Positions 3,223 to 11,496 of a DNA stretch of 33,887 bases are shown here, one piece after another. The translations under genes and the position numbers were made by a program. Source of the DNA: a virus (lineage: Duplodnaviria > Heunggongvirae > Uroviricota > Caudoviricetes); IMG/VR virus record IMGVR_UViG_2740892429_000002, positions 1-33,887 of that record, one strand, 5' to 3'. The notes beneath the pieces were generated by a model. That model saw only the letters and a list, made by a program, of their open reading frames with translations, did not search any database and was not told where the DNA came from. Every line of letters starts with the position of its first letter. The first letter of the stretch is position 1.

Positions 3223-3510
3223 TTAGTCCTCATCCACTTCAACGCCATCTTTCAGCGTGATGCCGTGCCAATCATCAGCCCAACTGGTTAGCCCTGGCGC
3301 ATCAATGCTAGGCATATAAACGCTTGCAGTGTGGTAGCCCTTATCGTTATCAATGCTGGCAACGTGCTCGCCGTTGTATGCGCTCAGCGTGTCCAGGACG
3401 CTATAAAACTTTCCTCCGGCTGCCCTGAAATCCTTTACAGCCTTCACAAGGCGATTCCACGCTTTTTCCTGTTCTGGCGTCAGGTCGATTAATTCCTGCA
3501 AAGTTGCCAT
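3223..3510 (-). CDS. hypothetical protein (95 aa)
   Basis: Start moved to the Met at MATLQELIDL, which has GGAGAG upstream and sits 1 nt after the upstream gene's TGA. Confidence 0.5.
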   Translation of the reverse strand: MATLQELIDLTPEQEKAWNRLVKAVKDFRAAGGKFYSVLDTLSAYNGEHVASIDNDKGYHTASVYMPSIDAPGLTSWADDWHGITLKDGVEVDED

Positions 3511-8507: not shown

Positions 8508-8768
8508 ATGCAATCACCATTACGGAATGTGCGTAAGGCGCACGGATTTACTTTGCAGCATGTTGCTGCGGGCGTTCAGGTCAATCCAGCGACGCTGAGT
8601 CGTATTGAAAGACTGGAACAAATTCCATCTATCGATCTTGCAGAACGTCTGGCCAATTTTTTTAAGGGTGAAATCAGCGAAATGCAGATTCTTTATCCGG
8701 CACGTTTTCAATCTAGCCAAAACCAGAATGGGTTTAAACCACAGGAACAGGAGGTAAGCCGTGGGTAA
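8508..8768 (+). CDS. cro: Cro-like HTH regulator
   Basis: 86 aa with HTH_XRE motif (LQHVAAGVQVNPATLSRIE), GGAGG RBS, first rightward gene. Confidence 0.75.
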   Translation: MQSPLRNVRKAHGFTLQHVAAGVQVNPATLSRIERLEQIPSIDLAERLANFFKGEISEMQILYPARFQSSQNQNGFKPQEQEVSRG

Positions 8769-9312
8769 GCATCATTGGAAAGTGGAAAAACAACCTGAAT
8801 GGTACGTGAAAGCTGTCAGAAAAACTATCGCGGCATTGCCTGGGGGTTACGCTGAAGCTGCTGACTGGCTGGATGTAACAGAGAACGCTTTATTCAACCG
8901 CCTTCGTGCAGATGGCGATCAGATTTTCCCGCTGGGATGGGCAATGGTTTTACAGCGCGCGGCTGGCACTCACTACATTGCGGATGCTGTCGCACAGTCT
9001 GCTGGTGGGGTGTTCGTATCGCTTCCTGAAATTGAGGAAGTAGAGAACGCCGATATAAACCAGCGCCTGCTGGAAGTCATCGAACAGATCGGGAATTACT
9101 CAAAGCAGATTCGTTCGGCAATCGAAGATGGGGTCGTGGAGCCACACGAGCAGACAGCAATTAATGATGAGTTGTATCTGTCAATTTCGAAGCTCCAGGA
9201 GCATGCAGCACTGGTCTACAAAATCTTCTGCGCTCCAGAAAAGAGTGACGCCCGCGAGTGTGCAGCTCCGGGCGTCGTGGCGTTTTGTGTCTGTGGAGAA
9301 ACTAACGCATGA
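8761..9312 (+). CDS. CII-position regulatory protein (CII/YdaT-like)
   Basis: 183 aa, GTG start after AGGAGG. The position after cro suggests a lysogeny-establishment regulator; family assignment is uncertain. Confidence 0.45.
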   Translation: MGKHHWKVEKQPEWYVKAVRKTIAALPGGYAEAADWLDVTENALFNRLRADGDQIFPLGWAMVLQRAAGTHYIADAVAQSAGGVFVSLPEIEEVENADINQRLLEVIEQIGNYSKQIRSAIEDGVVEPHEQTAINDELYLSISKLQEHAALVYKIFCAPEKSDARECAAPGVVAFCVCGETNA

Positions 9313-9722
9313 ACAGTTTAACGGCAAATAACCGTTTGTCGCAACAGCTGGTGGTCAGTGTCGCTGAACACCTGTTGTTACGGCATGAATGCAGATTACC
9401 AAATCACTTGGCTGTAAGTAACCACAGAGAACTTTACCTGACTGTGGGGGGCGAGTTGTGCAGGAACTTAACCGCTGGTTTCGTGACGGAAGAGGGCTTT
9501 ATGTCCATGTTATTCGTTGGGAGCCAGAAACACAGCGCGTTATCTATCTTCGCAAAGACTACCCGCATGAGTGCTTTAGTCCTTTGTGGAAATTCAGGCG
9601 TGATTTTGTTGAGTGTGAAGGACCACCAGCACATTGATTCTGCCATTCCGGGACGTTACACTGTTCAGGCACCTTATAAAGCGGGTGCCGGGCGTGGAAA
9701 CTCGGAATTCACCAAAGCGCAC

Positions 9723-9746
9723 AACCGCGCTCTTGCGGTTTTTTTG
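9723..9746 (+). terminator. intrinsic terminator in the early-right operon
   Basis: AACCGC-GCTCTT-GCGGTT followed by TTTTTTT. Confidence 0.5.
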
Positions 9747-9914
9747 TGTAATGAGCAGCATTACGCCCAAATTATGGTGGGGCGTGCAGGGCCAACTTCG
9801 GTTGGGCCGGGTTCTTTGGTGACCGGTATTTCCACCCCTGTACGTCTCACCACCAATAAGGTCGTGGAAAGCCTTGGTGGTGAGTTATTAAAAATCACCA
9901 AAGAGGCTGCCATC

Positions 9915-10460
9915 ATGGCTACGATCCCAACCCTCACTCAACCTGAAATTGCCATCGTTGATGGTCAGGCTGTTACTTCATCCCTGGCTGTTGCCAACTT
10001 CTTCTCCAAACGTCATGACGATGTACTGAAAAAGATCCGCACGCTTGAATGCTCTGCATCATTCACTTCCCGCAATTTTTCGGCGAGTGATTACACCGAT
10101 TGCACAGGCCGCAAACTACCTTGCTATCAAATAACCCGCGACGGCTTTGCGTTTCTTGCTATGGGTTTCACGGGTAAACGTGCTGCCCAGTTCAAAGAGG
10201 CATACATCAATGCCTTTAACCAGATGGAGAAACAGCTTTCAAATCCCTCTGTACTGAGCGACGTTGCACATAACGCCAGCGTTCTCTATTCCTACATTTC
10301 ATCAATTCATCAGGTCTGGCTGCAGCAGCTTTATCCTATGTTGGCAAAAGCCGAATCTCCGCTGGCTGTTAGCTTGTATGACTATATTAATGATGCTTCG
10401 GCACTGGCCTGCCTCATAAATTTGTCGCTGAACCCTTCAGAGGTAAGGGGGCGCAAATGA
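9915..10460 (+). CDS. Rha-family phage regulatory protein
   Basis: Internal ATG (AAGAGG upstream) of the long track ORF. The N-terminal motif TSSLAVANFFSKRHDDVLKKIRTL is the Rha signature. Confidence 0.75.
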   Translation: MATIPTLTQPEIAIVDGQAVTSSLAVANFFSKRHDDVLKKIRTLECSASFTSRNFSASDYTDCTGRKLPCYQITRDGFAFLAMGFTGKRAAQFKEAYINAFNQMEKQLSNPSVLSDVAHNASVLYSYISSIHQVWLQQLYPMLAKAESPLAVSLYDYINDASALACLINLSLNPSEVRGRK

Positions 10461-10681
10461 TCCGGAATATTTTCAAACGGTTTACCAATCAGACTTTCCG
10501 TTGTCCTCGTCCGGGTCAGTGGTACACCACACCTGCAGGGCATGTTCTACGTGTTAGCCTGGTTGACCGTGAATGTCAGAAGGTGATTTGTGAACCGCTG
10601 GGCCGTAGTTACCGCGTCAGTATGCCGCTTATAGCCTTTCGCTCCGGAAAAAACATGAAGCATCTCGGAGGTGCTGCATGA
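10457..10681 (+). CDS. hypothetical small protein (74 aa)
   Basis: ATGA-coupled to Rha upstream and to the initiator gene downstream. Confidence 0.45.
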   Translation: MIRNIFKRFTNQTFRCPRPGQWYTTPAGHVLRVSLVDRECQKVICEPLGRSYRVSMPLIAFRSGKNMKHLGGAA

Positions 10682-11496
10682 GTATGGAGCTGATGGTTAA
10701 AGCGATGAAAATTCGAGTGGGTAATCCATTGCGAAAACTGGTTCTGATCAAGCTGGCTGATAATGCCAGCGATCAGGGGGAGTGCTGGCCCAGCTACCAG
10801 CATATTGCTGACCAGTGCGAGATTAGTAAACGTTCTGTGATGAATCATATTGCGGCCCTTTGTGAGTCCGGGCTGGTAAAAAAAGTCACTCGGAAAGGTG
10901 AAAAAGGTAACTCAAGTAATATCTATCTCCTTCATCTGGATGGTGCAGGAGATTCACTAGGGGGTAGTGCAAATAATTCACTATCTGGTGCAGCAAATTC
11001 ACCAGGTAGTGCAGGAGTTGCACCAGGGGGTAGTGCAGGAGATTCACCCAGAACCAGTCACTCTTTTGAACCAGTCAAAGAACCAGTCAATGAACCAATA
11101 GCTGTTGGTGCATCAGTTGATGAGTCCGTGCGAGTTCGTTCAAACCGACCGGAATACTCTCCGGAGTTTGAGCAGGCATGGCTGGCATATCCCAAACGTG
11201 CTGGTGGCAATTCAAAATCTGCAGCCTTCAAAGCCTGGAAAGCCCGTTTGAATGAGGGAGTAAACCCCGAAACCATGCTGGAAGGTGTGAAACGCTACGC
11301 GGGCTGGGTATCTGCGATGGGTAACAGCGGCACACAATTTGTGAAACAGGCTGTCACGTTCTTTGGTCCGGATCGTCATTTCGAAGAATCCTGGGAAGTT
11401 CCTGCGGTATCTGCAGCCAGACGCGAGGACCCGTACTTCAAAGCCAGTTACGACAACGTGGACTACAGCCAGATCCCGGCAGGATTCAGGGGGTGA
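10678..11496 (+). CDS. replication initiator (O-like) with N-terminal HTH and low-complexity linker
   Basis: 272 aa, GGAGGTG RBS. N-terminal wHTH (LADNASDQGECWPSYQHIADQCEISKRSVMNHIAAL); Gly/Ser/Ala linker encoded by DNA iterons; conserved C-terminal domain. Confidence 0.65.
   Translation: MSMELMVKAMKIRVGNPLRKLVLIKLADNASDQGECWPSYQHIADQCEISKRSVMNHIAALCESGLVKKVTRKGEKGNSSNIYLLHLDGAGDSLGGSANNSLSGAANSPGSAGVAPGGSAGDSPRTSHSFEPVKEPVNEPIAVGASVDESVRVRSNRPEYSPEFEQAWLAYPKRAGGNSKSAAFKAWKARLNEGVNPETMLEGVKRYAGWVSAMGNSGTQFVKQAVTFFGPDRHFEESWEVPAVSAARREDPYFKASYDNVDYSQIPAGFRG
10943..11089. repeat. iteron cluster (candidate replication origin) inside the initiator gene
   Basis: GTGCAGGAGATTCAC twice (about 10943 and 11033), GGTAGTGCA three times, and GAACCAGTCA three times in tandem (11051, 11068, 11080). 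Confidence 0.55.

Follow-up and report, generated by a model that had tools for sequence, protein, structure and literature searches.

A probable P4/P1-type antisense RNA module within the open frame leading into rha of an mEp460-like lambdoid phage

What does the early-right operon of an mEp460-type lambdoid phage encode between its CII-position gene and rha? In IMG/VR virus record IMGVR_UViG_2740892429_000002, of which positions 1 to 33,887 were analysed (33,887 nucleotides, hereafter the window), this place is taken by a single open reading frame (ORF) of 383 amino acids at 9309-10460 that runs into Rha. An earlier note on this DNA, made from the sequence alone, had doubted that 9309-9914 encodes one long protein. 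It called the first 200 or so residues unprotein-like, picked out two hairpins and a 59-amino-acid ORF in another frame, and suggested a short gene followed by a regulatory or antitermination zone. The long ORF is present as it was described there, its ATG sharing an ATGA with the TGA of the CII-position gene, and the coordinate at which the described region ended, 9914, is the last base before the conserved rha start ATG 9915. The short gene followed by a regulatory zone is likewise found: a DUF4222 gene, an IsrK small RNA (sRNA) with its terminator, a C4 RNA, and target sites at the ribosome-binding site of rha, all on the plus strand. We conclude that 9309-9914 is probably a P4/P1-type antisense-RNA immunity module that controls the antirepressor-like Rha, with the long ORF translated through the module from PR. 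The regulatory zone would be an antisense immunity/anti-immunity switch and not a lambda-style nut or antitermination site.

The host phage is of the mEp460/SfV/ST64B lambdoid type, and the module lies in its early-right operon directly after the small DUF4222 gene. Around the locus the window is 99.9% identical to mEp460; its identity to many other lambdoid phages of E. coli, Shigella and Salmonella, SfV, ST64B, cdtI and Stx1/Stx2 phages among them, is 85-99%. For comparison we used an alignment of the window with ten phages (1720a-02, cdtI, ST64B, SfV, Ayreon, one Stx1a phage, phiP27, two P2-like phages and N15), a set of 35 distinct close variants (76-99.9% identity), and 93 unique modules obtained by a pattern scan of viral contigs.

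Two RNA families are matched over their full length. The Rfam isrK covariance model (RF01394) aligns to 9669-9745 from model position 1 to 77 of 77 with 62.5 bits (gathering score 50, E 3e-11), and the C4 model (RF01695) aligns to 9770-9857 from 1 to 87 of 87 with 83.6 bits (gathering score 45, E 3e-15). The first element is an IsrK sRNA of the seqA/a1b1 type. It has two hairpins and a single-stranded linker, and ends in an intrinsic terminator whose stem spans 9723-9740 and whose T run reaches 9745. The second is a C4/CI-type antisense RNA with a long closing stem and two inner hairpins. From these matches, therefore, the terminator that had been seen at 9723-9746 is that of IsrK, and the UUCG hairpin seen at about 9790-9810, which we find at 9792-9805, is the first inner hairpin of C4. 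Beyond these two, an Rfam search at E <= 1 over 8900-10000 gave a single match, to the c4-a1b1 family of the same clan; it overlaps IsrK with 17 bits, under the gathering score of 46.7. A search for tRNA and tmRNA genes found none. A terminator scan by itself gave no significant excess (5 found, 2.4 +/- 1.7 expected).

The C4 segment folds at -44.6 kcal/mol (z = -4.1). Among 37 aligned C4 sequences, compensatory changes occur in 12 of 27 helix pairs, a count to be read with the fact that the collecting pattern had fixed some positions, including the stem of the second hairpin. Where C4-family RNAs are matured from a longer transcript by RNase P and other nucleases, the one related trait visible here is the CACCACC motif at the 3' end of C4, which is conserved in the same alignment. 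Moreover, an AUG at 9774-9776, within the 5' strand of the closing stem and in frame with rha, is invariant in 37/37 sequences. Members of the isrK family also occur in ten relatives, P4 and Gifsy-1, and 10 of the 11 relatives that were fetched, N15 and P2-like phages among them, carry the isrK and C4 pair 24-35 nucleotides (nt) apart. The gap is 24 nt in the window, 25 nt in Gifsy-1 and 107 nt in P4. Such pairs are not new to the literature: Barquist et al. noted them in lambdoid Salmonella prophages (PMC3632133), and they have been noted in lambdoid prophages and satellites (PMC3632133, PMC10111431).

The two RNAs and the rha leader are joined by matching words. C4 carries a b' specificity loop, TCTTTGGTGA (9813-9822), in its second hairpin, and an internal single-stranded a' segment, TTTCCAC (9829-9835). 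Upstream, the a1 site GTGGAAA (9694-9700) occupies the loop of IsrK hairpin 2 and complements a', and the b1 site TCACCAAAG (9709-9717) lies in the single-stranded IsrK linker and complements b'. Downstream, the rha leader holds the a2 target GTGGAAA (9864-9870) and the b2 target TCACCAAAGA (9895-9904; to 9906 with the Shine-Dalgarno sequence included), which overlaps the rha Shine-Dalgarno sequence GAGG (9903-9906). Within the window the C4 segments complement their targets without a mismatch, the b duplexes measuring 9-10 nt and the a duplexes 7 nt. In the whole 33.9 kb there are three copies of TCACCAAAG, all inside the module, where 0.22 would be expected.

These words covary. In the ten-phage alignment the a and b words are phage-specific and have changed in concert at all three places. 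In the 93 modules we count 36 b' words and 19 a' words, and every one has its match in the IsrK and the leader of the module that carries it. Sorted by partner, the mean longest duplex in these modules is 9.0 nt for b1 with its own partner and 5.4 nt with a foreign one, 10.8 against 6.2 nt for b2, 6.6 against 5.0 nt for a1, and 7.0 against 5.4 nt for a2. Among E. coli relatives, the 276-nt module (9639-9914) differs by 58-102 substitutions and the adjacent 325 nt (9312-9637) by 0-9; for the RNA module, this is the pattern of a specificity cassette that is swapped or diversifies rapidly. In some contigs two or three IsrK-C4-ORF modules stand in tandem (L047, with three that are 656 nt apart, and L022, L033, L034, L078, L090, L096, L119 and L135). 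The a and b words differ in each of these modules, and the end of one through-frame overlaps the start of the next by about 20 nt.

A further pairing bears on the C4 fold. Perfect pairing is also possible between TTGGTGGTGAG (9874-9884) and the 3' strand of the C4 closing stem, CTCACCACCAA (9846-9856). The resulting hairpin (9846-9884, 11 bp) is an alternative to the folded C4, the two being mutually exclusive; a T/A-rich tract comes after it, and both of its arms are kept in the ten-phage alignment. As judged by its sequence, it could serve as a second, conditional terminator. In many relatives a T run (GGTGGTGAGTTTTTT) follows it.

The start of rha that this module would control lies at 9915. 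The short form of the gene (9915-10460, 181 amino acids, MATIPTLTQPEI...) has its GAGG followed by 8 nt and then the ATG. The arrangement GGAGG-N8-ATG GCT AC, encoding MAT[IV]P..., is kept in all lambdoid members of the ten-phage alignment, even where the downstream gene differs (SfV, Ayreon orf37). Pfam Phage_pRha (PF09669) matches with 108.3 bits (threshold 29.9) at residues 223-308 of the long ORF, equivalent to residues 21-106 of the short form, so that the domain sets in about 20 residues after the methionine of ATG 9915. Both the position and the first residues of this start are homologous to the start of the short P4 gene, kil (MATTLTPSHPEF...). From the conserved motif, the onset of Phage_pRha and the homologous P4 stretch, we therefore place the start of the short rha at 9915.

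The 59-amino-acid ORF which the earlier note had placed at a GTG at about 9458 is present at 9458-9637 with the sequence quoted there. It has a G-rich Shine-Dalgarno sequence before it, is read in a different frame from the long ORF, and is a real gene under strong purifying selection. It matches Pfam DUF4222 (PF13973) with 51.1 bits (threshold 27, E 9.5e-14) and phrog_1343 over its full length (1e-36). In phages of Yersinia, Serratia and Morganella, tblastn found relatives down to 38-46% identity; there DUF4222 is annotated as a standalone gene that immediately precedes replication gene O. An alignment of nine homologues has 13 invariant columns. In the DUF4222 frame the ratio of nonsynonymous to synonymous change (dN/dS, omega) is 0.08 against ST64B and 0.05 against the Stx1a phage, and variable sites among the 35 close variants fall 11/7/22 by codon position. 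The same nucleotides read in the frame of the long ORF give omega values of 3.6 (ST64B) and 1.5 (Stx1a phage). That the 59-amino-acid ORF is open by chance is ruled out by the Pfam and PHROG matches, the distant standalone homologues and the omega of 0.05-0.08.

What, then, is the long ORF? It begins at ATG 9309, with GGAG 10 nt upstream, and joins a YmfM-like N-terminus, the translation of the RNA module, and Rha; we treat it as an analogue of P4 eta. Its frame runs for 202 stop-free codons before the rha ATG, where each of the other two frames has about 12-13 stops. The ATGA overlap (9309-9312) is kept in 34/35 close variants, and the frame from 9309 to rha is open in 34/35. The same holds across the wider set. 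In 88/93 modules the frame at C4 start +1, to which the invariant C4 AUG belongs, has no stop between the beginning of IsrK and the start codon downstream, against 0 and 14-16 modules for the other frames, although counts such as 88/93 are not independent events, because the sequences compared share ancestry, and the internal controls (other frames, foreign partners, re-placement of substitutions) mitigate this only in part. Over the 93 modules this frame holds 11 stops, against 360 and 205. Moreover, the through-frame starts at or just after the stop of varied upstream genes (in the window group, phiP27, the Stx1a phage, P2-like phages and P4), and it is fused to or coupled with differing upstream and differing downstream genes.

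The residues that this frame encodes tell a different story from the frame itself. Over 9639-9914, from IsrK to the leader, omega in the long frame is about 0.7-1.2 and there is no codon periodicity, in agreement with the earlier description of the first 200 or so residues as unprotein-like. We also considered 9312-9457 as coding in the long frame: close relatives show few, mostly synonymous changes here. In two diverged lineages, however, substitutions fall 8/12/13 and 8/13/8 by codon position, and the segment is therefore without a coding signal; its changes cluster in a hairpin. A full-length frame with synonymous-site bias throughout would have spoken for a 383-residue protein. What we observe is a frame conserved in 34/35 variants and no such bias in the first 200 codons. 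The idea that this is not one long protein thus stands in so far as the first 202 codons are without protein-level selection. It does not stand in so far as it made the frame an annotation artefact, since the frame is kept open. As read from these sequences, the frame is maintained and the protein sequence is not, a pattern like that of P4 eta.

A promoter for IsrK can be proposed immediately upstream. The candidate, PisrK (9634-9662), would be the analogue of P4 PLE and consists of TTGATT (9634-9639), a 17-nt spacer and TACACT (9657-9662), with a start at about 9669; it is read from the sequence rather than mapped. Its hexamers are kept in every lambdoid member of the ten-phage alignment, and the TGA stop of DUF4222 falls within its -35 hexamer. 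No LexA box was visible by eye at this promoter.

We propose that the module works as follows. In the lysogen the internal promoter PisrK alone would be active, and the IsrK terminator would end most transcripts to yield the sRNA. Transcripts that read through would be processed into a stable C4 RNA. Its a' and b' segments would pair with a2 and b2, occluding the rha Shine-Dalgarno sequence, and with a1 and b1 on nascent transcripts; for these reasons Rha would not be made in the lysogen. An excess of IsrK, which carries the same a and b words as the target, might titrate or open C4 and turn Rha on, as with IsrK and AnrP of Gifsy-1. Once PR is active, ribosomes coupled from the CII-position gene would translate the long ORF through IsrK and C4, and this translation would prevent the terminator and C4 from folding and pairing. 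Transcription and translation would then reach rha and the replication genes (10457 onward). For the first 200 or so residues an open frame would matter and the amino-acid sequence would be irrelevant. Selection for an open frame, at an omega of about 1, speaks indirectly for such an override. The coupling of the long ORF to the upstream gene is suggested by the ATGA overlap.

The open frame might instead serve translational coupling alone: ribosomes that start at the ATGA or at AUG 9774 would unfold the leader and reach rha, and no override of termination would be involved. Several observations fit this. In Gifsy-1, translation of orf45, from an AUG in the C4 5' strand, is required for translation of anrP, and a premature stop in it lowers anrP translation (PMC4825925). 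The C4 AUG is, as noted, invariant; the N15-like modules keep the frame only from this AUG onward; and the rha leader can sequester its own Shine-Dalgarno sequence in a hairpin (-28.5 kcal/mol, z = -4.0). Yet coupling alone gives no account of why, in 88 of the 93 modules, the frame is also free of stops before the C4 AUG, over IsrK and its terminator, or of why it starts at or near the upstream stop in such unrelated contexts as the window, phiP27, the Stx1a phage, P88 and P4. Moreover, as far as the passages of PMC10111431 that cite Forti 1999 go, nonsense mutations in P4 eta cause premature termination of transcripts from upstream. We therefore consider coupling as the sole reason unlikely. 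A coupling role and an override of termination are not mutually exclusive, and can coexist.

A second alternative takes the locus to be a DUF4222 gene followed by a non-coding regulatory spacer, the long frame being a by-product of composition and shared ancestry. That the amino-acid sequence is unconstrained and that the open frames are not independent would suit it, and the annotation of 1720a-02 already splits the region into a 59-amino-acid gene and a shorter antirepressor. A by-product of this kind, however, should lose and gain stops as the other frames do. Across the 93 modules stops are gained or lost at 33-34 positions in the other two frames and at essentially none in the through-frame; among the 35 variants, polymorphic stops are found at 16 and 18 positions in the other frames and at none in the 9309 frame. 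When the observed substitutions of each diverged sequence were re-placed at random, a simple control that is not phylogeny-aware, the frame stayed open in 0.4-14% of trials per sequence, so that simulated neutral substitutions mostly create stops. Insertions and deletions in the long ORF measure 3 or 6 nt with one exception in the 35 variants, and in the P2-like phages they compensate, -2 nt in IsrK going with +11 nt in the spacer. Together with the joining of the frame to differing upstream and downstream genes, this leaves the spacer explanation very improbable.

Least probable of all is that the 383-residue ORF is one genuine multi-domain protein (YmfM-like, Ash, Rha) with a functional N-terminal 200 residues and only secondary RNA matches: the frame is conserved, it is annotated as a single protein in mEp460, cdtI, ST64B and SfV, Pfam Phage_ASH (PF10554) matches residues 117-213 with 56.2 bits (cut-off 26) and several PHROGs cover residues 61-383, but third-position bias is absent throughout codons 2-202, omega is about 1 from IsrK to the leader and above 1 over DUF4222 (where the other frame is the one truly selected), the 'Ash' part changes by the rules of RNA pairing (in its helices and in the three-way covariation of the a and b words), the 276-nt module carries its 58-102 substitutions between phages with near-identical flanks, and the conserved Shine-Dalgarno sequence and ATG 9915 mark a separate start. 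What Phage_ASH matches is exactly IsrK, C4 and the leader in translation (nt ~9657-9948), and here the match fails to behave as a protein domain, there being no purifying selection on its residues. On this reading of the sequences, the Ash family may largely reflect RNA-level conservation together with a maintained frame. As a real protein domain, the N-terminal 200 residues were rejected on codon position and dN/dS, despite the Pfam Ash and PHROG matches.

Several points weigh against an immunity module translated from PR. We infer promoter activity, C4 processing, translation of the long ORF, the mode of repression and its override by analogy. Folded alone, IsrK is ordinary compared with shuffled sequence (z = 0.0), and its identification therefore rests on the covariance model and the comparative data. 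The PisrK candidate matches the consensus at 8/12 positions, under the threshold of a simple scan, which thus finds no promoter for IsrK; the call rests on conservation for that reason. In P1 and Gifsy-1 the target of C4 action is translation, in P4 and N15 it is termination, and the sequence of the window is compatible with either. One close variant (L132) has a 1-nt deletion that breaks the 9309 frame, and the N15-like modules (5/93) have stops in the frame upstream of C4, which means that there is no universal through-ORF. The stretch from 9309 to ~9640 is also open, as a 112-codon 'YmfM' ORF, in phages that lack the RNA module, and the analogy with eta leaves the openness of this module-free ORF unexplained. 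Lastly, in Gifsy-1 the toxicity of IsrK is not relieved by co-expression of STnc1160 (PMC4825925), a poor fit to simple titration. With these points taken into account, the antisense module controlling rha is still the reading that we hold to be probable.

More tentatively, the through-frame in this large group of lambdoid phages may be described as a ribosome conduit: an ORF leading from the CII-position gene to rha, meaningless in protein sequence and kept open only so that transcription from PR, coupled to translation, can cross a constitutively active terminator and antisense switch and arrive at the replication genes. We regard this generalisation as possible, if doubtful. If it is true, the Pfam Ash family and perhaps the 'YmfM' ORF would represent translated regulatory RNA or conduit and no functional proteins; the 36 x 19 b and a words would form a combinatorial immunity code, at times set out in tandem arrays; and the filamentation ascribed to ymfM of e14 could stem from a nested, unannotated DUF4222 gene.

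The last of these concerns an overlap seen elsewhere. In e14 of E. coli K-12, ymfM (b1148, 'cell division inhibitor YmfM', 112 amino acids; L138, 3323-3681) overlaps an out-of-frame, unannotated 59-amino-acid DUF4222 ORF with a TTG start at 3502, and in SfII (L012) the same ymfM/DUF4222 overlap is found at 1271-1629. The published ymfM expression clone carried the annotated ORF (bioRxiv 10.1101/2020.11.19.390815) and therefore held most of the DUF4222 ORF. Either the ymfM or the DUF4222 product may be the cause of the filamentation.

Some features of the neighbourhood were also recorded. The gene in the CII position (8761-9312) is YmfL-like and matches Pfam Phage_CP76. Within it, on the minus strand at 9060-9073, is a terminator-like hairpin with a T tail, its placement reminiscent of lambda oop. 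Genes of the operon 8508-11496 overlap at nearly all junctions: at 8761-8768 between cro and the CII-like gene, by ATGA at 9309, 10457 and 10678, and by GTGA at 11493. These overlaps are consistent with an unbroken chain of translational coupling that is kept up by the long ORF. A hairpin without a T run stands at 9338-9386, between the CII-position gene and DUF4222. Its inner stem is wholly different in three sequence types and the pairing is kept in each (-25.1, -17.2 and -24.1 kcal/mol, with z of -3.4, -1.6 and -3.2). A 17-nt inverted repeat, with one arm at the start of the long ORF (9307-9323) and the other in the promoter/TSS region (9654-9670), was considered as a long-range pairing or operator pair and was dropped as a chance occurrence, since other upstream contexts do not conserve it.

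These results bear on annotation and on prophage biology. In the GenBank records of mEp460, cdtI, ST64B, SfV and many Stx phages, the equivalent of 9309-10460 is labelled as a single 'Rha/antirepressor/peptidase/immunity region' protein. Such records omit the two RNA genes and usually DUF4222 too, a recurrent annotation problem that is resolved here. The rha or antirepressor gene of these phages, Shiga-toxin converting ones included, appears to be under a P4/P1-type antisense switch with phage-specific words. Antisense control of rha would bear on prophage induction and on cross-talk between co-resident prophages. Moreover, the module is a clear example from nature of selection acting on an ORF for its translation and not for its product.

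How does the module compare with systems already described? In P4, CI works via Rho-dependent termination at timm. The Rfam isrK and C4 models both match there, to seqA and CI, and a P4 ORF (8812-8168, 214 codons from the first ATG) spans the two in the same frame relative to C4 as in the window. This ORF begins with MMM at a GCATGA over the stop of the upstream gene, as the window ORF begins at its ATGA overlap. Its last 65 amino acids begin within ...EAAIMATTLTP..., after the b2/seqC target, at a start homologous to that of rha; we take this 'MATT...' stretch to be Kil, the kil gene of Forti 1999. P4 has an internal promoter shortly before its IsrK/seqA element, at the place of the candidate PisrK in the window. 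In the parts of PMC10111431 that draw on Forti 1999, the transcript from this constitutive internal promoter is soon terminated through interactions between CI and seqA and is processed to CI, and Kil is translated on read-through only. Full-length Eta, according to the same parts, is translated only from the upstream promoter, eta being coupled to the upstream gene, and its translation prevents the immunity-specific termination (PMC10111431). Besides the gap between IsrK and C4, other features of the window differ from P4. The controlled gene encodes a 181-amino-acid Rha-domain protein and not a 65-amino-acid Kil; the N-terminal part of the long ORF overlaps the DUF4222 gene out of frame; and the element that carries the module is a lambdoid phage whose CI repressor is a protein, for which reason the module RNA would not be the primary immunity factor.

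Gifsy-1 (L139) shares with the window the order IsrK, C4-type RNA, a2/b2 and antirepressor-like gene, and its IsrK likewise carries a1 and b1 words that match the leader. The start codon of its orf45 is the conserved AUG of the 5' strand of C4, and the frame is that of AUG 9774. The read-through RNA from IsrK is translationally silent there, IsrK in trans activates translation of orf45 and, by coupling, of the antirepressor-like AnrP, and a stable processed RNA, STnc1160, covers orf45 (PMC4825925). Compensatory mutants prove that the middle of IsrK pairs with the 3' end of orf45 (Hershko-Shalev et al. 2016, PMC4825925); the segments so paired correspond to a1 and a'. In contrast to the window, where the frame enters rha without a stop, orf45 ends at an AUGA over the anrP start. 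The Gifsy-1 module (34076-34349) follows immediately on the Q antiterminator gene of the late region, a place held in lambdoid phages by PR' and tR', whereas that of the window lies between the CII-position and replication genes.

The immI region of P1 and P7 (a1 b1, c4, a2 b2, icd, ant) has a C4 of the same Rfam family with a' and b' segments. The window follows a P1-like layout, in that the C4 segments complement one upstream pair of sites and one downstream pair at the ribosome-binding site of the controlled gene, and the Rfam family of P1-type targets, c4-a1b1, matches the 5' half of Gifsy-1 IsrK. Unlike in P1, there is no icd-like ORF between target and rha, b2 and the Shine-Dalgarno sequence directly preceding ATG 9915; the controlled protein belongs to the Rha family and is not P1 Ant; and the upstream target lies within an sRNA that has its own terminator. 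The phage-plasmid N15, with the CA RNA of its anti-immunity locus, has an isrK and C4 pair with matching a and b words upstream of an operon that ends in the antirepressor. In N15 the frame does not come open before the AUG inside C4 (gene 32), and there is no through-ORF from the upstream gene. Nothing in the window is new in kind, P4 eta/kil, P1 immI, N15 CA RNA and Gifsy-1 IsrK having already been described, and it is a further example of what they represent.

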